Positions 8,473 to 63,545 of a stretch of 64,000 nt of DNA are shown here, piece after piece. Numbering within the stretch: position 1 is the first letter of the stretch; each line of letters starts with the position of its first letter. Below the pieces are notes generated by a model. The model was not told where the DNA came from. It saw nothing but the letters and a program-made list of their open reading frames with translations, and searched no databases. Origin of the DNA: an uncultured Methanosarcinaceae archaeon (GTDB lineage Archaea; Halobacteriota; Methanosarcinia; Methanosarcinales; Methanosarcinaceae); contig CAVSHT010000014.1 of the NCBI GenBank assembly GCA_963727895.1, positions 32,001 through 96,000 on the forward strand, read 5' to 3'. A program made the translations under genes and the position numbers.

Positions 8473-8956
8473 TTACCAAAACTTCCACCACTTCTTATTT
8501 CCTTCTCCAGGTGCTTTAATGGCTTTTTGCTGGATAAGTGTCTGCATTTGCCTCATATAATTATCATAGAGATTTTTGATATCATCCTTATCTCTATGAG
8601 CTTGTTCAAGTTCCCCCACGAGGGCAAGATTATATTTTTCTAATTCAGTATTTTTAGCCTCTAATGCCCCAACTTTTACCCTCAGTTCTCCTGATAATGC
8701 CCCATTTTTATTCCTCACTTGCCCCTTCTTGTCCCGTTACCCTCCCTTGCCCTAATGGATCTCTATTTGCCCCATTGCTACCCTTTGCTTGCCCTTGCCC
8801 TTGCCCTTCTAAAACTAACTCTTATCCTGTTATTATTGTCTCAGTCCATGTTTTTGATCCTAATATTGATTCAACCTTATCATATAATTCTGGGGAAATC
8901 CATGCCCCAACTTTTTTTCTGTTGGGGTCACCTATCCGTTTCTTGCCCTCGACCAT
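8473..8956 (-). pseudogene. RHH + coiled coil + KKWWKFW-tail protein (nonsense codon at 8822 plus frameshift)
   Basis: MVEGKKRIGDPNRKKVGAWISPELYDKV...TIITG* then, in another frame, ...LEAKNTELEK...KKWWKFW. Confidence 0.7.
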
Positions 8957-9489
8957 GAAACAAAAATGTAAAAAGGAGTATGTAACGTTTTCGAACTGTA
9001 ATCTTTTGAAACCGGTAAAAGTATGAATTAATACAAATCTTGGCATATTTAGGAGAACCTAATTTTTAAATTGTTAAGACAATTGTGTAAATTTTAAGTA
9101 AATACATTTTATATTTGTATATTTTACAATAACTATGTGTTTCTTACCTTTTTTTGTTAAAGTACCGTATTGATAGGTCATAACTGCCATGTTCCTATAT
9201 ACTCTGAAATTACTCGATTTAGAAAAGTAATGTTTTTAATCGGTAACTTTGTTTTATAATCCGCTATATAAAATTTTGAATAAAATCGAAATGTTAATTA
9301 ATTTGCTCCTTAAATTATCTAACAAAATAAAGGAGATTGTAGAGTAATGGTTTAGGATTAGGATATTTTTTACCTAATTTTTCATTTGCGTTATCAGCAG
9401 ATTTTAAGGTTAACATTCTATATGCATGTGTTTTTTAATACTCGCTATTATAGCTGGTTTGAATCTAAAATATAACCCTAAATTTTGCT

Positions 9490-13038: not shown

Positions 13039-13894
13039 GGTTCTGTTGCAAAAAATATCTGTTAAGGATTTAATCAAATAAAAGGGAAGTAAAGGATAAT
13101 GACATGCTATCTAATCCCTTTAAATGGAAGCATTTTGTGGGTGAAATTATTTTATTGAATGTTAGATGGTACTTAAAATATCCATTAAGTTATCGAAATT
13201 TAAAGGAAATGATGGCAGAAAGGGGAGTAGAAGTTGATCACAGTACTATCATGAGATGGGTACATCAATATTCACCTGAAATTGAAAAGAAGGTCTGAAG
13301 GCATTTAAGACCAACAAACGACTCTTGGAGAGTTGATGAAACTTATATCAGAGTTAAAGGTAAATGGAAATATTTTTACCGAGCAGTTGACTCAAATGGA
13401 GATACAATTGATTTTATGTTAAGTGCAAAACGAGACCAAAAAGCAGCGAACAGATTCTTCAAAAAAGCTTTGAATTCTAATCAGAATCAAATTCCAAGAG
13501 TAATCACAGTTGATAAAAATCCAGCTTATCCACCTGCTATAAATAAACTAAAAAATGACAAAATACTACCTATAAACGTAGGCATTCGACAAATCAAGTA
13601 TTTGAATAACATTATAGAACAAGATCATAGATCCATTAAACGAATAGTTAATCCAATGTTAGGATTTCAGTCTTTTAACACAGCTATTAAGACTTTAAAA
13701 GGAATTGAAGCGATGAATATGATTAAAAAAGGACAAGTCAAGAATCTAAATTACTCTGGTCTTAATGAAGCTAAATATATTAATCAATTATTTGGAATAG
13801 TTCTATAATATTGATACATCTTCTCGAATATTTTAACTTTTGTTCATTGTCTATAGATTTACATGCTTATTCTGAGATTTTTTGCAACGGAACC
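13039..13894 (+). mobile_element. IS6-family element, transposase interrupted by CGA>TGA at 13296; 8-bp target duplication GTATTCTG
   Basis: Inverted repeats GGTTCTGTTGCAAAAAA/TTTTTTGCAACGGAACC; near-identical to 38469-39324. Confidence 0.95.
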
Positions 13895-13910: not shown

Positions 13911-14161
13911 GGGTTCATGTCCAGAGACCTTCCGCAGTAAATTTGATTTAAATCTTCTGACATACTTGTAAACACAAATCAATATCTATAGTCAAGAGGC
14001 TAAATGATGCAACTTTTAATGATTTTCAGAACTTTCTTGTGATTGCGAAAATATATACAATTTACGTGAGCATTCATCATTTAACTATCGAAGTCTAGTG
14101 GAAATATGGAATTCCTCGGGAGTTTCATTGAGTGTTACTGCAGGAGGTCTGTGGACATGAA
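13911..14161 (+). mobile_element. Internally deleted derivative of the IS481-like element
   Basis: Both ends match 54214-55460. Confidence 0.85.
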
Positions 14162-16687
14162 GACTCATAGTGAAAAAAAGCTTGTATTCTGGAGTATTCC
14201 TACATCCGAGATATTGCAGGAACTCCAAACAACGGATGAAGGCCTAAAAAGTTCCGAAAGCGGTGAGCGTCTTAAGAGATATGGGGCTAATATTCTTAGA
14301 CCAAAGAAAAGGTCAGATGCCCTTAAGATTCTGCTTTCCCAATTCAAAAGTCCGATTACGCTTATTCTCCTTTTTGCAGCCGGAATTGCCTTTTTTCTTC
14401 ATGAACAAACAGATACCATAATTATTGTAACTATTGTCTTGATCAGCAGTTTGCTGGGATTCTGGCAGGAAAAAGAATCTGCAGATGCCTTTGAAAAACT
14501 GCTTTCTGTAGTGCAGATAAAGGCGGCAGTTATCAGAGACGGCAGGGAAACAGAAGTTCCAGTCAAAGAGATCGTGCCTGGAGATATAATAATCCTCCAC
14601 CCAGGAGACATGATTCCTGCAGACTGCTTGATTCTTGACTCAAATGACCTTTTTGTTAGCGAAGCTACTCTCACAGGAGAGAGTTATCCTGTAGAAAAAT
14701 CAATCGGTGCATTGAAGGCAGAAATCCCTATCGGACAGCGTATAAATTCTCTCTGGATGGGAACAAGTGTGGTTAGTGGAAGTGAAAAAGCACTGGTAGT
14801 GTTTACAGGGAAGAAAACCGAGTTTGGGAAAATTTCAGAAACGCTGAAACTCAGGCCTCCGGAAACTGAGTTTGAAAGAGGCGTTGCAAACTTTGGCCAT
14901 TTTCTGATGGAAGTTACGATGCTTATGGTGCTAGCTATCTTCGTGATCAACGTTTATCTCCAGCGTCCGGTACTTGACTCGTTTCTTTTCTCCCTTGCTC
15001 TTGCAGTTGGGCTGACTCCTCAGCTTCTGCCTGCAATCATTAGTGTTAACCTTTCCCACGGCGCAAGAGAGATGGCGCAAAATAAGGTGATTGTCAAGAG
15101 ACTAGCTTCAATTGAGAATCTGGGCAGTATGAACCTACTTTGCTCCAACAAGACTGGTACTCTGACTAAAGGAGAACTGCAACTTCACTCTTTTCAGGAC
15201 CTCAAAGGAGATCAAAATGAAAAAGTCCTCCTTTATGCCAGTCTCAATGCCTATTACCAGAAAGGTTTTGAAAATCCTATCGACAAAGCAATAGTTGTAC
15301 AGAATAAACTTGATTTGGCCCAGTATGAAAAACTAGACGAAATCCCTTATGACTTCATACGTAAACGGTTAAGTATCCTTGTCTCAAAAAGTGGCACTAA
15401 CCTGATGATTACCAAAGGTGCGCTTCCGAATATTCTTGAAATCTGTTCCATAGCAGAGGCTGAACCTGGAAAAACTGTAGACATTTCTGAGGTAAAGAAA
15501 CAAATAGAGCAACAGTTTGAAGAATTCAGCGAAAAAGGGCTTCGAACGCTTGGAGTTGCATACAGGGAAATGGGGCAGCAGAAAACTATCAAAAAAGAAA
15601 AGGAAAAAGGAATGACTTTTCTAGGGTTACTCTTCTTTTTGACCCACCAAAGCCAGACATTATAAAAACGATAGAAAGCATGGGACAGCTCGGAATTTCT
15701 CTGAAGATTATTACTGGAGACAACAAGTTTGTGGCTGCCAGTATCAGCCGGGAGATCGGACTTAAGAACTCCAAGGTTATAACCGGGATCGAACTTGATA
15801 AGATGAGTAACGAAGCCCTGGTTAAGCAGGTAAATGATACTGATTTTTTTGCAGAGATAGAACCGAACCAGAAAGAACGTATCATCCTTGCATTCAAAAA
15901 GAGTGGAAACGTCGTTGGCTATATAGGAGACGGCATTAATGATGCGTCTGCTCTTCATGCTGCAGATGTGGGAATTTCAGTTGACAGCGCTGCAGATGTT
16001 GCCAAAGACGCTGCAGACATTGTGCTGATGGAAAAGAATCTGGACGCACTTGTTGAGGGGATAAAGGGTGGGCGGAAAACCTTTGCCAACACCCTGAAGT
16101 ACGTCTTCATGGCTACAAGCGCCAATTTCGGGAACATGTTCAGCATGGCGGGAGCGTCCCTTTTCTTGCCTTTCCTTCCCCTGCTGCCCACACAGATCCT
16201 ACTAACCAATTTATTGACCGACTTTCCGGAGATGACCATAGCAACGGATTCTGTGGACAGGGAGTTGATCGAAAAACCCCGTCGCTGGGATATAGGTTTT
16301 ATCCGCAAGTTTATGATAGTATTTGGTCTTACCAGCTCTGTATTTGACTATCTGACTTTCGGCGTTTTGCTTCTTATCCTCCCTGGTAAGATAGAGCAAT
16401 TCAGAACCGGATGGTTTGTGGAATCCGTTATTTCAGCATCTATGATAGTCCTGGTAATTCGAAGCAGAAAACCTTTCTTCAAAAGCAAACCCGGAAAATA
16501 CTTGCTGGCAGTTACCCTGCTTGTTGGAGTCTTGACACTTTGTCTACCGCTGACTCCTTTTGCAGCTCCTTTTGGCTTCAAATCTCTCTCCATTTCCATG
16601 ATTTTAATACTCGGAGTCATAGTAGGACTATACATTCTTACGGCTGAGATAATAAAGAAAATGTTTTATAAAAAAGTAAAATTTTGA
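14157..16687 (+). pseudogene. mgtA: Mg2+-transporting P-type ATPase, frameshifted near 15640 and with phosphorylation-site D>N
   Basis: TGES, LAVGLTPQLLP, CSNKTGTLT, TGD, GDGINDA, ANFGNMFS; split across two frames. Confidence 0.9.
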
Positions 16688-36891: not shown

Positions 36892-38148
36892 TCACCATAT
36901 CTGTACAGAACAGATTCTTCGTATATCTGGACGGTAGGTCATAAATCTAACAAATGCTCCATCTCGATAAATGGCATCCGCTAACATATCTGGGTCTCCA
37001 ATAAAAACAATCTCACTCGTAAGGCCTCCACGCCCACGACTTGAAACGTTTGCATTGATAATTCCCATCATTTTAAATTTAGATATTTTTTGAGAAATTG
37101 CAGCTAATGATAATGGTTCTTCTTCTGCAAATTTACACATATCACGATATATTCGATAAACATCACCAGTGACAATGAATTTTCCGGTCTTCAGATATTT
37201 CTCAGCATAAATCATTGCTAATAAAGCAAACTTTTCATGGAAAGCCATGTTTAAAACAAACTGCAAGTTGATGTCCTCCTTAACTTTTATAGAAGCCATC
37301 ATTACGTGTCCTGGTTGAACATTTGAACATTCTGTTTTAATTGCAAAATTACCTGCAGCTTGTAAAAGGAAAATTGCTCTTCTTGCATCTCCTTCGTCCT
37401 TTGCAGATTCTTCAGCACAGAGTTCTACAGTACCTTCACAAATTACATTTGGGTAAAAAGCTAGAGGAATCCTCATATTTAAGATGTCAATTAATTGTCT
37501 CTTGTTATATGGAGGAAATACAATTGTTTCTCTTTGCATAGAAGAATCAACTCTTGGATCAAGAGAATTAACAAATTCACCCGTATTGGAAACACCGATA
37601 ATATGAATGAACTGTCTTTCATTCAATTCTTTGAATTCTCCTGAACGGCTGAAATTGTAAAGGACATTGTCGTCTTTCAGAAAATCAATTTCGTCAAAAA
37701 TAACCGTTAAAGAATGACCTTGTTTTTTGAGATATGAATAAAATAAGTCATAGTAATACCCACAAGATACTCCACTTTTTGGTAATGGTTCAGAATAGCC
37801 CAATTCACGAAGCAGAAAACTTAGAATTTTAGTTGTTGTGTTATGTTTTTTACATGGAACAGTGATATGTTTTAAATTGACTGAGCCTCCTGCTTCTGAA
37901 TACAGTTGTCTAAGTACATGCTTAATTACAACTGTCTTTCCTGATCCAGGAGGGCCATATATAAAAGCATGTCCAGGCTTTCCATTTCTGAAGAGAGGAT
38001 AAAAAATTTCAGCTATAGAATTTATTTCCTCATCTCGGCCTACTAGAACACTTGGAATGTAGTCGCTTTCAAGAACATAAGAATCCTTAAATATTTTTAC
38101 TTTTTTGAAATCAAAAAGTTTTTTGGGAACAGTAGAATCTAATTCCAT
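36892..38148 (-). CDS. cdc6: Orc1/Cdc6 replication initiator
   Basis: DYIPSVLVGRDEE, Walker A GPPGSGKT, Walker B IFDEID, FPPY, GDARRAI, C-terminal winged helix with GRGG. Confidence 0.92.
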   Translation of the reverse strand: MELDSTVPKKLFDFKKVKIFKDSYVLESDYIPSVLVGRDEEINSIAEIFYPLFRNGKPGHAFIYGPPGSGKTVVIKHVLRQLYSEAGGSVNLKHITVPCKKHNTTTKILSFLLRELGYSEPLPKSGVSCGYYYDLFYSYLKKQGHSLTVIFDEIDFLKDDNVLYNFSRSGEFKELNERQFIHIIGVSNTGEFVNSLDPRVDSSMQRETIVFPPYNKRQLIDILNMRIPLAFYPNVICEGTVELCAEESAKDEGDARRAIFLLQAAGNFAIKTECSNVQPGHVMMASIKVKEDINLQFVLNMAFHEKFALLAMIYAEKYLKTGKFIVTGDVYRIYRDMCKFAEEEPLSLAAISQKISKFKMMGIINANVSSRGRGGLTSEIVFIGDPDMLADAIYRDGAFVRFMTYRPDIRRICSVQIW

Positions 38149-38468: not shown

Positions 38469-39324
38469 GGTTCTGTTGCAAAAAATATCTGTTAAGGATA
38501 TAATCAAATAAAAGGGAAGTAAAGGATAATGACATGCTATCTAATCCCTTTAAATGGAAGCATTTTGTGGGTGAAATTATTTTATTGAATGTTAGATGGT
38601 ACTTAAAATATCCATTAAGTTATCGAAATTTAAAGGAAATGATGGCAGAAAGAGGGATAATAGTCAACCATACAACCATTATGAGATGGATACATCAATA
38701 TTCACCTGAAATTGAAAAGAAGGTCCGAAGGCATTTAAGACCAACAAACGACTCTTGGAGAGTTGATGAAACTTATATCAGAGTTAAAGGTAAATGGAAA
38801 TATTTTTACCGAGCAGTTGACTCAAATGGAGATACAATTGATTTTATGTTAAGTGCAAAACGAGACCAAAAAGCAGCGAACAGATTCTTCAAAAAAGCTT
38901 TGAATTCTAATCAGAATCAAATTCCAAGAGTAATCACAGTTGATAAAAATCCAGCTTATCCACCTGCTATAAATAAACTAAAAAATGACAAAATACTACC
39001 TATAAACGTAGGCATTAGACAAATCAAGTATTTGAATAACATTATAGAACAAGATCATAGATCCATTAAACGAATAGTTAATCCAATGTTAGGATTTCAG
39101 TCTTTTAACACAGCTATTAAAACTTTAAAAGGAATTGAAGCGATGAATATGATTAAAAAAGGACAAGTCAAGAATCTAAATTACTCTGGTCTTAATGAAG
39201 CTAAATATATTAATCAATTATTTGGAATAGTTCTATAATATTGATACATCTTCTTGAATATTTTAACTTCTGTTCATTGTCTATAGATTTACATGCTTAT
39301 TCTGAGATTTTTTGCAACGGAACC
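38469..39324 (+). mobile_element. IS6-family element with intact transposase (38534-39238); no target duplication
   Basis: WRVDETY, TVDKNP, NNIIEQDHR DDE motifs; both inverted repeats present. Confidence 0.95.
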
Positions 39325-39770
39325 TACTACAGTCAAAAATAGAATTTACTCAGAATTTTATAGAATCTGTTTTCCACTTTAGCAATGCACATGCTATATA
39401 CTACAGTCAAAAATAGAATTTACTCAGAATTTTATAGAATCTGTTTTCCACTTTAGCAATGCACATGCTATATACTACAGTCAAAAATAGAATTTACTCA
39501 GAATTTTATAGAATCTGTTTTCCACTTTAGCAATGCACATGCTATATACTACAGTCAAAAATAGAATTTACTCAGAATTTTATAGAATCTGTTTTCCACT
39601 TTAGCAATGCACATGCTATATACTACAGTCAAAAATAGAATTTACTCAGAATTTTATAGAATCTGTTTTCCACTTTAGCAATGCACATGCTATATACTAC
39701 AGTCAAAAATAGAATTTACTCAGAATTTTATAGAATCTGTTTTCCACTTTAGCAATGCACATGCTATATA
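39325..39770. repeat. Six perfect 74-bp tandem repeats, non-coding
   Basis: Unit TACTACAGTCAAAAATAGAATTTACTCAGAATTTTATAGAATCTGTTTTCCACTTTAGCAATGCACATGCTATA at 39325, 39399, 39473, 39547, 39621, 39695. Confidence 0.97.
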
Positions 39771-39935
39771 CAAAGGAACTCTATTTATTATAGTTGTTCA
39801 GCATCTGTTGTGTTTATGAATAAGGGTGGGACAATTCGTTTTATGGTGTCAATTGGTATTGCTGTTTTAATGGGTATATTAAGTGCTCTCGTTGTAGTGA
39901 TACATAATCCAAAAAAATAGTGTGCCTGAATATTG

Positions 39936-40430
39936 TTACCATAATTTCCACCACGGTTTACCCTTCTCAGCTGCAGGCGCTTCAATCTGCTTAACCTCAA
40001 CATTCTTGAAGTAGTGAGCAAATACATTAAGCGTTTCTACTTCTTTTGTAAGATCTTCTATTCGCTTATCTTTTTCTTCAAGAAGCTTTTCTATACCAGT
40101 AAATCTTCCTTTTAATTCTGCAAATTCTAAAGGGTTCGGAGCAGCTTGTATTATGCTTTTTAGTTTATGTATTTCGTCCTTATTACTTTGTATTATGGTG
40201 TATTTTTCTTGTAATTCTTTTTTTAGTTTTTGTATTTCGCTTTCTTGTTCGTGTAATACCTTTGTATTATTTAGTGTCTTTTCTTACGTATTATTTAATA
40301 AATTTTCTAAAGCTTTTGTAATACAAGCTGTTTTATCGTTATATTCTTCTGCCTCCACAGCTGTGACTAACAAGTCATGCAGGCTTTTAGGGATTTTAGC
40401 ATTAATAGGAACACGTATTTCGCCGGTCAT
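39936..40430 (-). pseudogene. RHH + coiled coil + KPWWKLW-tail protein (one internal TAA at 40284-40286)
   Basis: Not in the ORF track; by hand MTGEIRVPINAKIPKSLHDLL...KALENLLNNT*EK...KDKRIEDLTKEVETLNVFAHYFKNVEVKQIEAPAAEKGKPWWKLW. Confidence 0.8.
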
Positions 40431-40860
40431 ACTGGCGTATTATGGTGTAATATTTTAAAAATATAGTCTATCTTATGAGCATGAAATAATTGAATTTCAA
40501 AAGTATTTAAATATATATATTTAAGATCCATTTTCACATATTTGATAAATACCTATGTGTTTCTTACCATTTTTGAGTTAAAGTATGTTATTGATAGAAT
40601 TAATTTTCTATCCACAAATGGAATGAGCTTCCTTATATTTAATTTTCGCATATGTATTGGTTCTTGCAGTTCATAGTATGTAGAATGAATTTTTACAAAT
40701 TCACATCGCTTTTATCAGCCAATATCGAAAATTTTTGTTGAGTGAACAAAATTAGTTTGAAATCTAAAATTTTTTCTGATTTTTGGCACATGGACTATAT
40801 AGTATTGTAACAAGAAAGTTAGTTGTAAAGGAATACATTTTACAAAATGAGAAGATAACT

Positions 40861-41277: not shown

Positions 41278-41631
41278 TTAACTTTTTTTGATTTCTTCCA
41301 GTATCTCTTCTAGTGGCTCTTTCAGAGAAGGGATATCTTTCTTTACAGTGCTCCAAATGATGGGAAGATCTACTACAAAATATCCATGAACTACTTTGTC
41401 ACGGATTCCAGCCATGAGTTTCCATGGAACTTCTGAATGTTCATTTTTTAGGGACTCAGGAATATTCTTTGATGCTTCTCCAATGATTTCCAAGGCTTTC
41501 ATTACAGCATATACTGTTTTTTTATCACTAGAAAATTCATCAAATTCAATTCCTTTAATGAATTCCTCTATATCGGCAACAGATTCTATAATATCAAGTA
41601 AAAATTGGGTAGAATCCCGCCTGTAAGTCAT
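41278..41631 (-). CDS. HEPN (DUF86) RNase toxin, HepT-like
   Basis: LEIIGEA, PW, RDKVVHGY (Rx4HxY). Confidence 0.9.
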   Translation of the reverse strand: MTYRRDSTQFLLDIIESVADIEEFIKGIEFDEFSSDKKTVYAVMKALEIIGEASKNIPESLKNEHSEVPWKLMAGIRDKVVHGYFVVDLPIIWSTVKKDIPSLKEPLEEILEEIKKS

Positions 41632-41936
41632 AAAGATATAACCTCATTAAGAATATGTTTTCCAACATTCTGTTTGAGACCTGTTCTAGTTACTAGATCT
41701 ACTTTTATTCCCAAGAGGTCACTTAGATAGTATTCAAGTTCAATGTATTTCAAAAGACCGGGTATTTTATCAAATTCTACTAGAACATCAAGATCACTAT
41801 TCTTTGTTTGCTCTCCACGGATGTAAGACCCAAAAACTCCTATATAGCTTACGCTATATTTTTCTTTTAATTCAGGTATATGTTGCCTTAATATCTTGAT
41901 AAAATATTCTGAATCTTTTAGTTCTTGAGAAAGCAT
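41628..41936 (-). CDS. Minimal nucleotidyltransferase antitoxin, MntA-like
   Basis: FGSYIRGEQTKNSDLD (GSx10DxD); 4-nt overlap with the HEPN gene. Confidence 0.9.
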   Translation of the reverse strand: MLSQELKDSEYFIKILRQHIPELKEKYSVSYIGVFGSYIRGEQTKNSDLDVLVEFDKIPGLLKYIELEYYLSDLLGIKVDLVTRTGLKQNVGKHILNEVISL

Positions 41937-51184: not shown

Positions 51185-52569
51185 CATTGGTCATCGGTTA
51201 AGGTTTAGACTGTAATTCTTGCCACTGGTTTTATAGTAATCAAATATATTAAATTTGTCCAATGGTACTCCAGTCCTCCCTTACTCTTGAAAGTATGATC
51301 TGTAATATTTTTCCTAAAACATGGTTAAATAAACTTGCCAAAAAAACAGATTTTATAAAACGTGAACGTAAAATTAAATCTGATGTAATTTTTTGGGTAT
51401 TAACTCTTGGCTTTTATATCCGTAATCAGAGTACAATAGCAGGTTTAAAGCGTCTATATGAAATAGAAGCAAATACCTCGATAAGCGATAGCAGCTGGTA
51501 CTATCGTTTCACTCCAGAACTTGTTGAGTTTCTTCATCAATGTGTAATTCATGGTATAGAAGAACTTGCAAAAGAACCTGGTATAAAACTCAGCAAGAAA
51601 CTCGAAAACTTCCAGGATGTTGTCATTCAGGACAGCACAATTGTTCGTCTTCATTCCTTTTTAGCAGATAAGTTTCCAGCAGCAAGAGCTAAAACAGTAG
51701 CTTCAGGCGTAAAAGTAGGAGTTGTGGTAAGTGCAGTTGCTAACGGACCTAAAACCCTTGCTTTATATTCTGAAAAAACAGCTGAAATAAAAACATTAAA
51801 AATAGGTCCCTGGATCAAAGACCGTATTCTTCTTGTTGATCTTGGTTTTTACAAAACTCAGATGTTTGCAAGGGTTGAAGAAAATGGGGGATATTTTGTG
51901 TCCAGAATAAGGAAGAATATGGATCCATTTATTGTTTCTATAGAAAATGGAATTCTGGAAAAAAAGAGTGAAGAGTTCATAGGAAAACGTGTCAGTGAAT
52001 TTACCAAGCAATACTCAGGTGAGGACCTTGATGCAGTTGTAAAAATAGCATTCAAGAGAAGAGCATATAAAGGCAAGCAAAGAAAAGATGAGATGCTTGT
52101 ACGTCTTGTTGCGACATATAACTTTGAGGAAGAAAAGTACCATATATACATAACAAACATCCATAACGATGTTTTGGATGCAAATGACATTGTAAAATTA
52201 TATGGGGCAAGGTGGAAAATTGAATTGCTTTTCAAGGAGTTGAAAAGTGGATATGCACTTAATGAACTCAATACAAAAAATGTGCAGATAATTAAAGCCT
52301 TTATATGGATGTCAATATTAACATTAATCGTTAGCAAAAGAATTTATTCTTTTGTAAGAAATTCACTAATCGATCCTGAAAAGAAGTTGCGATATACACA
52401 GTTGCGATGGAGCAAAATATTTGCAAGTAACGCATTGGATTTATTAAAACTACTGCTAAAATGTTGTGACGGAAACAGAATTTTCGAAACTTTGATGCAT
52501 GTTTATATAAGTCAAGGTTTAGACCCACACGTCAATAGAAAAAGGTTTAGAACTCCATGGTTTGAATAA
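51185..52569 (+). mobile_element. IS4-family element, transposase 51262-52569; right inverted repeat not found
   Basis: IQDST, VDLGF, YGARWKIELLFKELK (YREK); left end CATTGGTCATCGGTTAAG. Confidence 0.9.
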
Positions 52570-54213: not shown

Positions 54214-55460
54214 GGGTTCATGTCCACAGACCTCTTGCAGTAAATTTGATTTGAATCTTCTGACATATTTGTAAAAACAAATCAACATCTATAGTCAATA
54301 GGCTAAATACTGCAACTTTGTTGAGATACAAAATGTTATTTTTTGCAGCAATTATAGGCGTTACTATATGTCTGAAATATATGTTTATAAATGGGAGGAT
54401 ATCCGAAAATATTTTCCACCTGAAAGAGTGGCAGAAATTCGAGCCAAAATCCTTGAACTGCGAAAATCTGGAAAATAGACCGATAGAGAACTGTGGAAAA
54501 TGTATGGAATGAGCGAACATACTTTCTATTATCTTGTTGAAAAAGCAAAAGACGGAAGTAGAGCAGAAGACTTGAAGGACACGCCTTCGAAGCCTAAAAA
54601 TCCATATCGAAAGCTAACGGATGAAGATAAAGCTGAAATAATAAATCTCTATTTGAATGATACAAACAGAATCGAATCATCTAAACATGCGTTTGTTGAT
54701 GCAATGGAAAAAACAGACCATGTCTTAAAACCAGAGAGAGTACAGCAATTGACGGGATTAATGGATAAAGCTGTGAAGGGAATTCGAAGAATTGCAGCTT
54801 CATTCAATAGAAAAAAGGAGAACAAAGAAAGCTCAGTTTGTGTTGGCAAATCATGGGTTCATCATATTCTTACTATTGCTGGGCTTACTGGAAAACAGAA
54901 GACGGCTATAAGTTCCAAACATCTTCAACGCCCTCAAGAACCATTGAGCTCTTTCAATATGGACTATACTCAACGGAGAATTGGAAATGGTGAGACTGCG
55001 TATGTTTTTGGTGTACTTGATATTTTTAACAGTGGTATTGTAATCCTTGATACCCATAAGACAAAATCAGGTGCCAATGTGGTAGAATCTCTTCACCAAT
55101 TACGCAAAATGGTACCAAAAGATGTTGTAATCGAGATTCGATCTGATGGAGGTTTGGAGTTTAATAATGCGACTGTGCGTGAATATTGTAATAGAAATAA
55201 TATTATACATCATATTCTTCCAAAGGCACATCCGTGGTTGAACGCTTTCATTGAACGAGCAATAGAGACTTTGCAATATGAATTCATAAATTTACAATAC
55301 CATGCAACGTTTAATGATTTTCAGAAATTTCTTGTGATTACTAAAAATGGATACAATTTACGTGAGCATTCATCATTCAACTATCGAAGTCCAGTGGAAA
55401 TATGGAATTCTTCGGGAGTTTCATTGAGTGTTACTGCAAGAGGTCTATGGACATGGACCC
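54214..55460 (+). mobile_element. IS481/IS3-like DDE element; transposase from 54368 with in-frame TAG at 54476
   Basis: 30-bp inverted repeats GGGTTCATGTCCACAGACCTCTTGCAGTAA; FNMDYT, IRSDGGLEF, FIERAIETLQYE; TA on both flanks. Confidence 0.85.
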
Positions 55461-55848
55461 TAACATTGGATTAACAATTCGCTTTATAGATCTATGATCT
55501 GGTTCCGTTGCAAAAAATCTGGCTTTTTACAAATAGCTCAATTTTTCAATTAATATAAAATTCTGAGATATAATTCGTATTATATTATATCATTTAGATG
55601 ATAATAACCTGATAATATAATTTTAAATCAGTTTTCATTAAATATGCGATGAAAATAGAATTTATTGACAATTTAAGGACTTACATTTTGAAGAATCCAA
55701 AATTAAACATTATGAACTTGGTATTTTATGTAGTGAAATTTTACATCAGAAATATCTCAGACTAACCGTATTGTCCTTAAATTGAGTCATCAAATTGAAA
55801 AACTGATTAAAATTGTATCATTGTAAACAATAATGGGAGTGAAAACAG

Positions 55849-61306: not shown

Positions 61307-61771
61307 GTGAAAATAATGAATGAAGAAGAAACACCTATCCAGTGGATTGAGGATATTGACAAAGTCGCTGCACTTGTCTCATTTACATATCGCTCTGTCC
61401 AGAAGCATTTTGTGAAAGAACTGGTTCCATACCATATAGGATGGGGCCATTTCTCTATCTTGATGTCTCTGTATCATCAGGAAGGTCAGAGTCAGGATGA
61501 CCTTGCACGGTCGAGAGGGTTTGATAAAACGATGATTGCAAAATCTATTCTAAAAATGAAAAAAGAAGGCATTGTCTACCGTATAATAGACCCAGAAGAC
61601 AAAAGAATCAAAAGGCTCTACCTTACTGAAAAAGGAAAAAAAATGAAGCCTGAAATGCGAAAAATAGGTTCCGAGCTGAATTCACTTTTGCTCAAGGATT
61701 TTGAATCAGATGAACTACAATCTGTTATTGGGATAATTCGAAAGATTGCTTTGAATGCAGCTAAGCTCTAA
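61307..61771 (+). CDS. MarR-family regulator
   Basis: SQDDLA...DKT...DPEDKRIKRLYLTEKG. Confidence 0.9.
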   Translation: MKIMNEEETPIQWIEDIDKVAALVSFTYRSVQKHFVKELVPYHIGWGHFSILMSLYHQEGQSQDDLARSRGFDKTMIAKSILKMKKEGIVYRIIDPEDKRIKRLYLTEKGKKMKPEMRKIGSELNSLLLKDFESDELQSVIGIIRKIALNAAKL

Positions 61772-62186
61772 AAAGGGCTCCGTTGCAAAAATCCTAAAAT
61801 TTGAGTAAAACTTGAGTTTCACAGCATAAAACATGGAAAAGAAAAATATTTTTCAGATAACATTCAGATTTAGGCAGCTATTCCAAATGTTTTATCCTAA
61901 AATTAGTTAGTCTCATAATTTTTACTGTGTTTCAAATACGAACCTTTTTTGACAAACAACGTTCGGATATTTACTCATTTGGACGTAGTTTTCCAAGCTA
62001 ATTATTTATATAAAATTTAAAATACGAACTTTTTAGGTAAATGTTCATATATTTAAAATCACGATACATGACTAGAATCTTTTGATTTTGATTCCATTGA
62101 AGTAGATTTTTTAATTATACCTCTTTCCTATAAAATAAGTTCTCTGATCGTTAGTAATATTCCTTTTCGATGGTAGGATAACCAAC

Positions 62187-62392
62187 TGTACATTATCTGT
62201 ACATAGCTGTACACAGTCTGTATGTACAGAAGTGCCTGTACAAAACAGGAAAAATTATGTACTGTGTACAGCAGATAGACTGTACATGCCTGATGAGCTA
62301 ACGGAAAAAAGTAAGAGAATAAACGTCAGAATCCCGATTGAATTGTACAGTCGGGTTGTACAGTCTTACGGAATTACTGAAGCAGTTGTACA
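62187..62392. repeat. Ten TGTACA palindromes upstream of and inside the RHH gene
   Basis: At 62187, 62198, 62208, 62223, 62237, 62265, 62281, 62344, 62357, 62387. Confidence 0.9.
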
Positions 62393-62750
62393 GGGATTAG
62401 AGATACTTATAAACGGGGCGGGCCCACAAACACAAGATAACTCAAATGATGAGCTTGTAATAAGTTTGAAGGATAGGATAGAGAGTTTGGAGAACCAATT
62501 AAAAGTAAAAGATTCTCAATTAGAGAGTATTGATTCTCGAATGGGTGACAGAATAAGAAACTTAGAGGAACAATTGAGAGCAAAGGATTCTCAACTTGAG
62601 AAACAGGCATATTCTTTGCAGTCTGTTATTCAGGAAAATAGCAGGCTCAACCTCAAGTTATTACCAGAATCACAAGAAACGAAGAGCACACAAGAAACGA
62701 AGTTGACCCGATGGCAACATTTGAAGAGCTTTATGTTTGGGTCACAATGA
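62286..62750 (+). CDS. RHH + coiled coil + amphipathic-tail protein (intact)
   Basis: KRINVRIPIELYSRV...ITEAVVQGLEILI; LKDRIESLENQLKVKDSQLE heptads; RWQHLKSFMFG tail. Confidence 0.75.
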   Translation: MPDELTEKSKRINVRIPIELYSRVVQSYGITEAVVQGLEILINGAGPQTQDNSNDELVISLKDRIESLENQLKVKDSQLESIDSRMGDRIRNLEEQLRAKDSQLEKQAYSLQSVIQENSRLNLKLLPESQETKSTQETKLTRWQHLKSFMFGSQ

Positions 62751-62756
62751 TAAATT

Positions 62757-62864
62757 AAAGTAGAAACGCTTAATGTAGTAGCCCGTTACTTCAAGAATGT
62801 AGAGGTCCAGAAAATTGAAGCACCCGGCGAAAAGAAATCCTTTTTATCCAGGCTGAAATTTTGA
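62757..62864 (+). pseudogene. C-terminal remnant of a fourth family member
   Basis: VETLNVVARYFKNVEVQKIEAPGEKKSFLSRLKF matches the C-terminus of 39936-40430. Confidence 0.7.
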
Positions 62865-62884
62865 TAGATAAAAAGTAAGAAGGC

Positions 62885-63199
62885 TCATATTTGAGCCATG
62901 TAAATATCATAATTTCCGTTCCGATTATCTTGATACACTACTTTATTGCTATACATTGCAGGATTTTCAACATAATCAAATGGTAATTCAATATTCTTCT
63001 TAGCTTTAAAATCATAGAGATAGGTATGTATCCCAGTAAACATATCATTATACATTATCCGATTACCATATATTGAAAGACACCACGATATTCCATCAGC
63101 TATCTCAGTTGTCTTTTTTGTAGAAATACCATAAATCATAATCCGACTCAAATATGCTCCTTTTATAAAAAAAGGTAGAGACTCTGTGAAGGGAATTAA
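62885..63199 (-). pseudogene. Cell-surface beta-propeller repeat fragment
   Basis: IYGNRIMY, PAMYSNKVVYQDNRNGNYDIYM. Confidence 0.7.
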
Positions 63200-63396
63200 T
63201 TGCATAGAGGTTCAAACTTTGCCTAGATCTGAAAGGACGCTGACTTACTGATGGTGTTTTCTTGTGTGAACGGAAACAAACCTATGAAGGTAAGATGCTC
63301 AACGACACCGATAGGTAAGAGGCTTACCGACAATTTGTTAGTGGGCTGTTAGCCAGGATCACAAAATCAGTTATGCATAATAACTGGTGCCTGATG
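63200..63396 (+). mobile_element. Possible group II intron 5' remnant (start of domain I)
   Basis: Higher-GC non-coding segment starting TTGCATAGAGGTTCAAAC, cut by an IS6-type end; assignment rests on recalled resemblance only. Confidence 0.45.
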
Positions 63397-63545
63397 GGTT
63401 CCGTTGCAAAAATTTTCTTCTCACACTTTAAAGTATAATTGTACCTTTATTGTACTATTTTTTCAGGTGAGCGTGATGATTAACTTTTCTAATTGTGAAG
63501 GTTTTCACTTGTTTTGTGAAATAATCAGTTTCTTGTAACAGAATC
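63397..63545. mobile_element. 149-bp IS6-type MITE
   Basis: GGTTCCGTTGCAAAAA...TTGTAACAGAATC; similar to 34048-34196. Confidence 0.7.

Follow-up and report, generated by a model that had tools for sequence, protein, structure and literature searches.

Why should a short archaeal gene lie inside a dense cluster of short DNA sites that has no counterpart elsewhere in its genome? The question is raised by a locus in the window analyzed here, a 64,000-nucleotide stretch from an uncultured Methanosarcinaceae archaeon (assembly GCA_963727895.1, contig CAVSHT010000014.1, positions 32,001 to 96,000 of the forward strand), in which the gene for a 154-residue protein (62286–62750, + strand) begins within ten copies of the heptamer CTGTACA. 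An initial annotation, made from the sequence alone, read this locus as a candidate single-protein partition or tethering system. We find that the gene belongs to an archaeal protein family that is so far unannotated, that many members lie within an array of a motif of their own, and that the motif changes together with the β-strand through which these proteins are predicted to read DNA. In the reading that we prefer, to which we assign a probability of about 0.45, the product of the target gene is a dimeric ribbon-helix-helix (RHH) protein that binds its own array, probably represses its own expression, and also tethers its locus.

A CTGTACA Array Spans the Start of the Gene

The hexamer TGTACA occurs 21 times in the window, and ten of these copies fall between 62187 and 62392. 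Every one of the ten is part of the heptamer CTGTACA on either strand, with forward copies starting at 62186, 62197, 62207, 62236 and 62280 and reverse copies (TGTACAG) starting at 62223, 62265, 62344, 62357 and 62387. The resulting array (62186–62393, assigned to neither strand) covers the putative promoter, the start codon and codons 20–36, and thus reaches through the ATG into the initial 108 nt of the gene. By k-mer counting, the ten copies of CTGTACA in 301 bp compare with 0.033 expected from the remainder of the window, which bears out the initial count of ten TGTACA in ~206 bp with fewer than one expected. The layout first described is also there on the sequence: the first three TGTACA are spaced by 11 and 10 bp, the last A of the copy at 62281–62286 doubles as the A of the in-frame ATG at 62286, and three sites (62344, 62357 and 62387) lie in the coding sequence. 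These three encode L-Y-S once and V-V-Q twice, at a place where most relatives in the family alignment have II(E/K); the sites have thus left a visible mark on the target protein sequence.

Tandem Repeats Finder scores only 62186–62222, as 3.5 copies of an 11-bp unit, and the array is therefore dispersed and of mixed orientation rather than a plain tandem repeat. Genome-wide, CTGTACA has 431 copies (0.117 per kb in the 3.67-Mb assembly), and the array at the target gene is the sole true cluster among them. Further apparent "clusters" of CTGTACA, or of the ATAATAC motif of a paralogue described below, proved to be palindromes counted twice (CTGTACAG) or simple TATTATTAG repeats. No Rfam family matched across 61500–63500.

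The Gene Ends before a Remnant of Another Module

The open frame extends from 62232 to 62750 and contains the in-frame ATG at 62286, whose A is the final base of the seventh heptamer. One homologue (P0002) starts at the corresponding MPDE... and another (P0004) two residues earlier; the true start is therefore the ATG at 62286 and not the GTG at 62232. At the other end, TGA TAA at 62748–62753 closes the frame, and intact relatives (P0001, which is 91% identical, and P0005, P0008, P0012, P0014 and P0016) share the end ...TRWQ(H/Y)LKxFxFGSQ. The gene is thus whole and terminates with its TGA at 62750. A gene of the architecture first described does stand at the array, but its extension to 62864 fails. 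The target gene has no co-directional neighbour.

In frame behind the two stops lies a remnant of a different C-terminal module (VETLNVVARYFKNVEVQKIEAPGEKKSFLSRLKF, 62754–62864, + strand). Intact forms of this module make up the C-terminus of the paralogue at 39936–40430 and of locus L058, and the remnant co-occurs with the same tail type, here called FGSQ, in other genomes at ~79% DNA identity. The post-stop module of FGSQ-type genes reads VETLNVFAHYFK..IEAP..KKWWEFWK. Its copies form a decay series, being open after a single TGA in L010, interrupted by an internal TAG in L037, separated by the double stop in the target and lost in L008. The remnant resembles what an inserted or replaced module would leave behind, and the many orphan C-terminal fragments found among relatives suggest frequent recombination at the conserved 3′ end. 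Read-through into the remnant was considered and rejected on account of the two consecutive stops (TGA TAA) in the target, the extra stop in L037 and the loss in L008.

The Protein Is Predicted to Be an RHH Dimer with a Long Coiled Coil

We modeled the protein with AlphaFold2 from a 34-sequence alignment, obtaining a mean predicted local distance difference test (pLDDT) score of 80.9. Residues 1–46 (62286–62423, + strand) are assigned by the model and by structure comparison to a predicted RHH DNA-binding domain, with the β-strand KRINVRIP at residues 9–16 and helices at residues 18–26 (or 18–27) and 30–42. A predicted parallel, in-register dimeric coiled coil follows at residues 53–125 (62442–62660, + strand), with a helix modeled from 53 to 124 at a pLDDT of about 96; it contains the family's most conserved stretch (L93, Q96, K100, D101, Q103, K106 and Q112). 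A final helix at residues 133–151 is modeled with lower confidence.

The N-terminal 46 residues were also modeled alone (pLDDT 78.7), and this model was compared exhaustively, using VIA-align, with each of 48,161 PDB representatives. The 50 best matches are nearly all RHH proteins. The top scores belong to ArtA (3gxq, Z 4.7, rmsd 3.1 Å over 45 residues) and to the omega repressor (1irq, Z 4.7, rmsd 2.0 Å over 40 residues, 20% identity), whose complex with heptad DNA (2bnw) also matched. Arc and ParG (Z 3.8 each), ORF56, CopA, a CopG-like protein, SvtR, PutA, AmrZ, NikR and MazE9 are among the further matches. It is the consistency of this list, not the height of the Z values, that argues for an RHH domain. 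The N-terminus of the target is thus predicted to have the β-α-α fold of the MetJ/Arc/CopG type, in line with the RHH-like N-terminus noted at the outset. A Foldseek search of the PDB returned no match for either the full-length or the N-terminal model, and Pfam and NCBIfam models run on the target and its paralogues gave sub-threshold coiled-coil noise only and no family.

The homodimer prediction gave an ipSAE of 0.56, compared with 0.00 in the best of three controls, with contact agreement of at least 82% and partner pLDDT of at least 75 in the dimer runs. For calibration, 20 of 30 homo-pairs of solved structure attained the mark used in these runs, as did 1 of 23 solved single-chain proteins. 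The predicted interface comprises residues 7–42 and the in-register coiled coil at 54–125, in which i-to-i contacts occur at 61-61, 68-68, 90-90 and 93-93 and continue to residue 125; residues 7–21 of both chains lie within the interface. The target is predicted, on these models, to form an RHH-type dimer with a parallel coiled coil, and the long coiled coil that had been read from the sequence is retained in this form.

Private Arrays Recur across the Family

The initial annotation proposed that the specificity of such proteins co-varies with a motif array embedded at their own genes, and both parts of this proposal could be followed among homologues. We fetched 40 more loci from relatives and located the family open reading frames (ORFs) by profile, which gave 56 N-terminus-bearing loci with 46 distinct N-termini. 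Local arrays are present at 27 of the 46, each with 5–16 copies of its own 6–7-mer. For 6-mers the background is appreciable, with at least five copies in 206 of 2141 null windows. The contrast is sharper for the top GC-containing 7-mer, counted from −300 to +200 around the β-strand, which reaches at least five copies at 23 of the 56 family loci versus 45 of 2141 ORF starts of the source genome, and at least seven copies at 14 of 56 versus 14 of 2141. The high scorers of the null set are three family members and fixed-period tandem repeats (periods of 12–30 bp, one orientation). Three intact paralogues that were examined first carry ATGAGCA seven times, (A/G)GTGTAA 12 times in 11-bp steps, and TGTAATCA four times; further arrays consist of GTGTAA (12 copies), TGAGCA (11), AGGAAG (16) or ATCCCA (10).

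The spacing of the sites follows the DNA helix. At 28 array-bearing loci we measured 148 distances between same-orientation neighbours, 53 of which are 10–11 bp and 21 of which are 21 bp; among the 116 distances of 45 bp or less, 104 fall within 9–12, 19–23, 30–33 or 41–44 bp. The distances cluster at helical turns, so the sites lie on one face of the helix. Relative to the ATG, site positions peak at −25 to −1, −125 to −50, +50 to +75 and +125 to +200. In most loci two sites are placed near −20 and −7, and many have a downstream sub-array in the codons of the variable linker. The arrays are also private: for five paralogues of the source genome, whose assembly is 84% complete, the sole true cluster of each motif is at its own gene. 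The array and the family-wide design are real and lie far beyond chance.

The Motif Co-Varies with the Predicted DNA-Reading Strand

Members with similar β-strands carry similar motifs. The strand SKRINVRIP of the target and SKRINIRIP of L043 are accompanied by TGTACA (ten and seven copies), K(R/K)RINAFVP by TGAGCA (L002 and L038, seven and 11 copies), and KQRI(S/N)CYIS by GTGTAA (L003 and L055, 12 and nine copies). Likewise, KKIQVWVP and KKLQVWVS occur with ACTCCC (L039 and L076, nine and eight copies), KRKINCWIP with AGGATA (L033, L070 and L072; eight, six and six copies), K(V/I)RVTARIS with (G)ACACC or CACCAA (L008, L013 and L057), and K(V/I)RVNAR(V/I)P with CATACA or GTATGA (L034 and L061), which represent one shared site, GTATGAC/TCATACA. 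Among ordered pairs of loci with at least 7 of 9 identical strand residues, 19 of 30 have at least four copies of the partner's motif, as against 0.2% of 647 pairs with less than 34% strand identity, and 0 of 2000 label permutations matched the observed correlation, although these statistics overstate independence, the loci being related and the array overlapping, and being inherited jointly with, the N-terminal codons. The proposed co-variation of motif and strand is therefore seen in the family.

Shared motifs could simply have been inherited together with the strands, and the DNA between the sites bears on this point. L043 and the target are 52% identical in their N-termini and their flanking spacers are just 59% alike; inter-site spacers are 55–69% alike by global alignment even though copy numbers are kept. 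Between L039 and L076, 53% of the motif columns are aligned, and the two loci have 7 and 4 upstream copies (9 and 8 across −250 to +200). The diverged spacers and the unaligned sites of L039 and L076 argue against pure descent as the cause of motif sharing. The R-N-R triplet of strand residues is paired with CTGTACA in the target, whereas L034 and L061 combine it with GTATGAC; because one triplet occurs with related but differing motifs, further residues must contribute.

Family Members Share a Basic and Aromatic Tail

The C-terminal tail of the target (residues 133–154, ...TKLTRWQHLKSFMFGSQ; 62682–62747, + strand), delimited by alignment, AlphaFold2 and tail statistics, is of the minority FGSQ type. 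The initial annotation described an aromatic and basic tail. This description fits the real tail, TRWQHLKSFMFGSQ, whereas the residues quoted for it (KKSFLSRLKF) probably belong to the remnant behind the two stops. At least three aromatic residues in the last eight, together with a net charge of at least +2 in the last 12, are found in 33 of the 46 distinct family tails versus 16 of 2143 control ORFs. Among 186 stored relatives of at least 100 residues, 149 have a W-rich tail (e.g., KKPWWRFW), 16 the FGSQ tail, seven a zinc-ribbon-like end and 14 another end (mostly truncated).

Two orthologous members from complete genomes, L064 (genome G001) and L066 (genome G036), keep the RHH domain and the coiled coil and have a hydrophobic end of ~30 residues in place of the aromatic tail. 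These ends are transmembrane-like, with Kyte-Doolittle means over 19 residues of 1.67 and 1.62, and were found in 2 of 66 family ORFs. No motif array was seen at L064 or L066. A strong anchor without an array would fit the idea that weak tails act through multivalency, albeit in a single lineage. The W-rich tail is not confined to archaea: Bacillus cereus-group proteins with a MerR-type helix-turn-helix (HTH) domain, a coiled coil and a DUF3967 region (L148, L158 and L160–L179) end in the identical eight residues KKPWWRFW. One of these proteins is plasmid-borne (on a B. toyonensis plasmid), and a BLASTP comparison of a Bacillus DUF3967 protein with a family member gave 31% identity over 97 residues (E 3e-7 for the single comparison). 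Judged from sequence, the transmembrane-like ends and the Bacillus KKPWWRFW favour a membrane role of the tail.

The zinc-ribbon-like end is a third type of C-terminus, in which CxxC...CxxxC is followed by a basic YYRK (L013, L057 and L076; P0045, P0048, P0053, P0054 and P0075). It has a weak PLATZ-like Pfam match (E 1.6e-4, below the cut-off), and members that end in this way retain private arrays (CACCAA, ACTCCC). We also considered the tail as a PIP box (the sliding clamp-binding motif), whose canonical consensus it does not fit when judged by eye.

The Family Is Expanded in Methanosarcina and Single-Copy in Sister Genera

A word-indexed protein search found 55 homologues of the target at E≤1e-3, and an exhaustive profile search extended the family to 425 clusters (50% identity) at E≤1e-3, 195 at ≤1e-10 and 23 at ≤1e-30. 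Members were found in Methanosarcina and uncultured Methanosarcinaceae. Within the genus, matches at E≤1e-5 were found in 46 of 59 genomes, a single genome holding as many as 22, and many of these matches are C-terminal fragments only. Sampling across the class gave 43 matching genomes out of 301, of which only two fall outside the same family-level group. Besides the target, the source genome holds open N-terminus-bearing copies on contigs C3 (three), C17 and C4. The alignment is a mosaic of a variable N-terminus, a coiled coil of varying length, a conserved stretch and alternative ends.

In the sister genera, a single full-length copy is present in 6/6, 3/3 and 1/1 sampled genomes (one of the six shows two matches). 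All of these copies read ...KKQLNVRIS...KKKWYQFW, and in the three loci annotated the gene sits between carB and gatE. Around the starts, 4500 bp contain their own motif, CTATCA, 30 times, versus 28 times in 76,108 bp elsewhere in the same loci, a contrast somewhat inflated because the motif was picked from those start regions, and its sites recur at −31/−32 and +77. A single syntenic copy conserved in this way points to a cellular role older than the expansion in Methanosarcina.

Relatives are absent from the 72,556 plasmid records and 50,697 phage records searched and from a viral contig collection, the last scanned with another family member (P0005) as query, which finds close relatives only. 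These results do not support the plasmid partition role first proposed, the genes being chromosomal and multi-copy; the proposed lack of a nucleoside triphosphatase (NTPase) fared better, as no AAA_31 or CbiA (ParA/MinD) match lies within 130 kb of any copy in the source genome, in a search that did not extend to actin- or tubulin-like motors. Neighbours differ from locus to locus, with no consistently adjacent gene. The names attached to family members at source are absent or spurious ("chromosome segregation ATPase," "hypothetical protein"), and literature searches aimed at the family found no paper on it. The precomputed Pfam accessions PF28422.1 and PF27954.1 are attached to homologues P0003 and P0006, and a scan of those proteins with a Pfam copy that lacks both entries returned neither; a recent Pfam entry (PF28422, PF27954) may already cover part of the family.

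A Proposed Mechanism

We propose that a single RHH dimer would read one heptamer through the β-strand residues R10, N12 and R14. Because the sites are spaced by whole helical turns, dimers would align on one face of the DNA and bind cooperatively. Occupied sites at about −20 and at −6 to −7 from the ATG would occlude transcription initiation, resulting in autorepression. The assembled complex would present a brush of 10-nm coiled coils, whose many weak basic and aromatic tails could together hold the locus at the cell membrane or on a single shared partner. The parts of this mechanism differ in strength. Specific self-binding with autoregulation is the most economical reading of the locus, and we regard it as highly probable. 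That the protein would also act as a multivalent tether, holding the locus to the membrane or to a shared partner, is plausible, at somewhat less than even odds.

Several observations weigh against this reading as a whole. At 19 of the 46 distinct N-termini the top 6-mer has only 3–4 copies, which is the background level. The structural Z values are low in absolute terms (at most 4.7), as expected for a domain of ~40 residues; a profile of the 46 N-termini matched nothing significant among PDB sequences, with no hit below E 1; and curated RHH sequence models gave no match to the target, with RHH_5 matching 3 of the 46 members (best E 0.009), RelB-like models 2 (best E 1.4e-4) and CcdA 1. The dependence among loci noted above tempers the co-variation statistics. 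The helical hydrophobic moment of the target's tail is low (0.03–0.28), so that a clean amphipathic helix of the MinD kind, to which the initial annotation had likened it, is not evident in this copy, and a tail common to bacteria and archaea could be a self-association peptide. Copy number ranges from 0 to 22 per genome with many fragments and pseudogenes, a patchiness more readily expected of a dispensable or selfish element than of a gene with a core function in the genus. Finally, binding, repression, membrane contact and a role in positioning or segregation are what we infer, not what we observe.

Taken together, the family suggests a set of orthogonal, NTPase-less, self-addressed DNA tethers. 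In a bolder extension, Methanosarcinaceae would carry a natural library of private tethers, each paralogue placing its array in its promoter and even in its coding sequence, assembling there into a phased brush of RHH domains and coiled coils, and anchoring one chromosomal address to the membrane without an NTPase. Such private anchors could position or distribute chromosome copies in polyploid methanogens, or act as selfish retention (drive) elements for whichever copy bears them. We think this extension rather improbable; if true, it would explain both the single syntenic copy of the sister genera and the pseudogene-rich expansion in Methanosarcina.

Comparison with Known Systems

In architecture, the closest parallel is with two bacterial proteins. 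Par of the staphylococcal plasmid pSK1 reportedly acts through repeats upstream of its own gene. It shares with RocS of Streptococcus pneumoniae a DNA-binding domain, a parallel coiled coil with DUF536 and a C-terminal membrane amphipathic helix; in the available part of the source, a single weak amphipathic helix of RocS is insufficient and oligomerisation is needed for membrane binding, and pSK1 Par shares the module (PMC11500499). As far as that part of the source describes them, these proteins resemble the target in their three-part build of an N-terminal DNA-binding domain, a parallel dimeric coiled coil and a short membrane-type C-terminal peptide, and a weak anchor that needs multivalency fits a protein assembled on 10–16 sites. 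In both cases a single protein acts with no dedicated NTPase gene alongside. The DNA-binding domains differ, being a MerR-type winged HTH in RocS and pSK1 Par and a predicted RHH in the target; no HTH family in Pfam matched the target or its family. The family is moreover archaeal and chromosomal, and has expanded into paralogues of private specificity with arrays that enter the coding sequence. Of the four best genome matches to DUF536 (PF04394), three are in family genes, all of them below the cut-off (17.4 versus 20.7 bits), and at E≤10 the model also picks up 6 of 40 C-terminal modules (best 3.1e-4), a result that coiled-coil families with no relation to them equal. Bacterial clusters combining an RHH (NikA-like) domain with DUF536 are listed in the ESM Atlas at 0.87–0.89, which we treat as a lead only. 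Membership in DUF536 or DUF3967 could not be shown by model matches. We thus class the family as one that would work like RocS and pSK1 Par, rather than as a member of their group.

Omega of pSM19035 (PDB 1irq, 2bnw) resembles the target in its RHH dimer and in 7-bp units, palindromic or not, direct and inverted, many of which lie at its own promoter. It is said to have a double role, as a repressor and as a centromere-binding protein. Its heptads are reportedly contiguous, whereas the sites of the family are one or two helical turns apart. Omega works with the delta ParA ATPase (PMC2441792). No such partner was found near family copies in the source genome, and omega has neither a long coiled coil nor an aromatic tail.

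The R1 parC site is said to hold about ten short repeats, helically phased, around a promoter. The proteins ParR and ParG are RHH centromere-binding proteins (PMC9178275). ParR at parC and ParG of TP228 are, like the proposed role of the target, repressors of their own operon, and a C-terminal peptide links the complex onward; the ParR peptide feeds an adjacent ParM filament, whereas the family has no adjacent partner gene, and both ParR and ParG are missing the coiled-coil spacer and the putative membrane-type tail. Within the archaea, SegB of the Sulfolobus SegAB system is described as a site-specific RHH protein that acts on centromere-like sites beside its own operon and forms higher-order DNA complexes (PMC8682754, PMC9178275). 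This archaeal RHH protein on sites next to its own operon is like the target in that respect; it differs in having its partner SegA, a ParA-type ATPase, encoded alongside, and in being without a coiled coil or aromatic tail. No search that we made revealed a sequence relation between SegB and the family.

The Bacillus DUF3967 proteins have the same module order, from DNA-binding domain through coiled coil to tail. They differ in their MerR HTH domain, and the target itself carries the FGSQ tail rather than KKPWWRFW. No family gene of the source genome matched the DUF3967 model (PF13152) at E≤10, and private arrays were not seen at the six Bacillus genes inspected, out of 20 Bacillus and Paenibacillus loci. 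DUF3967 is uncharacterised in the literature searched, which has one incidental mention.

Alternative Explanations

The strongest rival is a plain autorepressor, in which the private array controls the protein's own level, perhaps along with single sites elsewhere, while the coiled coil stabilises dimers or tetramers and the tail anchors nothing. Sites that flank or overlap the start in most loci (about −20, −7 and +50 to +75) have the classical layout of RHH autorepressors, the fold matches include Arc, CopG-like, omega, AmrZ and antitoxin RHH domains, and the 431 single CTGTACA sites of the genome could serve as targets. Yet a regulator whose sole clustered target is itself has no output, and 10–16 phased sites far exceed what repression needs. 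The tail, moreover, is the feature most widely shared among paralogues of differing DNA specificity; it is replaced by a transmembrane-like segment in two members and recurs unchanged in the Bacillus MerR-HTH coiled-coil proteins. We therefore hold autorepression without tethering to be unlikely, though to be taken seriously.

The common tail could instead dock on a host protein, with the array as a centromere and the motor supplied in trans. The partner would be a ParA/MinD-like or actin-like NTPase, a division or cytoskeletal protein, or the sliding clamp. Precedent exists in the 17-residue C-terminal peptide of ParR, which binds ParM, and in the RHH proteins ParG, ParR and SegB, which bind centromeres (PMC9178275); and a tail held in common by proteins of many DNA specificities implies that they share one partner. 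Against this, no ParA/MinD-type gene was found near any copy in the source genome, and the sequence of the tail varies while its basic and aromatic chemistry is kept (KKPWWRFW, KKKWYQFW, LKSFMFGSQ; transmembrane in two members), which suits lipid over a docking groove. An identical tail in Bacillus would require a partner conserved across domains, and the tail is by eye unlike the canonical PIP box that a clamp would call for. A partition adaptor of this kind seems to us distinctly doubtful.

The patchy copy numbers (0–22 per genome), the many fragments and pseudogenes and the wealth of insertion sequence (IS) elements in the window raise the further prospect that these genes are relics of mobile elements: stability, incompatibility or immunity modules of integrated plasmids or proviruses that diversified against cross-talk and have no role on the host chromosome. 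Homology with relatives ends directly after the MarR gene at 61771, the target lies among small multi-copy repeats, diversified private specificities are typical of incompatibility and immunity systems, and one Bacillus protein with the same tail is on a plasmid. However, the plasmid, phage and viral-contig collections hold no relative (the viral query, P0005, being limited to close ones), no integrase, replication or capsid gene is consistently adjacent, and the single copy of the sister genera has a constant place among housekeeping genes, between carB and gatE. We give this explanation a slim chance. That the array arose by chance or by neutral expansion of a tandem repeat, unconnected with the protein, is scarcely credible: its first 3.5 copies are indeed called an 11-bp tandem repeat and intergenic tandem repeats are common in the genome, but the sites occur in both orientations with unequal spacers and extend into coding sequence, about 0.03 would be expected, the design recurs with other motifs at dozens of homologues and tracks the β-strand, and motif identity is kept while site positions turn over (L039, L076).

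Other Paralogues and Surroundings in the Window

The initial annotation listed two more genes of this architecture, each with its own motif. The motifs are real but weaker than that of the target, and both genes are pseudogenes as assembled. The first (39936–40430, − strand), with the β-strand RVPINAKIP and a tail ending in ...KGKPWWKLW, has an in-frame TAA at codon 49 and a cluster of five ATAATAC at about 40148–40437. The second (8473–9046, − strand) is split into an N-terminal piece (8822–9046, KKVGAWISPELYDKV) and a C-terminal piece (8473–8718, ...NKKWWKFW), the frame being lost in the linker, which carries CTTGCCC six times at about 8622–8800.

Three direct repeats of ~60 bp (39600–39790) lie between an IS240-type transposase gene and the first of these broken paralogues, 1.5 kb from a second Orc1/Cdc6 gene; the repeat region has 36895–38148 (−) and 38534–39235 (+) as its context, and the genome has three Cdc6_C matches. 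The region around 39600–39790 could be origin-like or belong to an integrated element. A linkage of the family to replication origins was rejected, since only the broken paralogue at 39936–40430 is near an Orc1/Cdc6 gene. A toxin-antitoxin pair of a HepT-like RNase and an MNT nucleotidyltransferase (41281–41936, −) lies 0.85 kb from the same paralogue.

The target is flanked by short stretches (61776–61888, 63199–63395 and 63397–63543) that are multi-copy in related genomes (five at 90% identity in genome G041) and look like miniature mobile elements. Elsewhere in the window, a P-type cation ATPase is split into two ORFs (14106–16684), and transposase genes (IS240-type DDE, DDE_Tnp_1 and rve) lie at 13416–13805, 38534–39235, 51262–52566 and 54500–55471. 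The window is an IS-rich, decaying chromosomal region.

Implications

Dozens of natural pairs of β-strand and heptamer constitute a ready data set for an RHH recognition code, in which R-N-R goes with CTGTACA, R-N-F with ATGAGCA, R-S/N-Y with GTGTAA, K-Q-W with TCCCA and K-N-W with AGGATA. The same pairs offer orthogonal operator/repressor pairs for methanogen genetic tools. Arrays that enter the coding sequence, and in relatives the linker codons too, would, on the sequence evidence, clearly exemplify a protein whose sequence has been moulded by the sites that it binds. The family would extend the principle of RocS and Par to archaea with a different predicted DNA-binding fold. An NTPase-less linker between DNA and membrane with a defined site would be a directly testable candidate for the organisation or distribution of chromosomes in polyploid methanogens.

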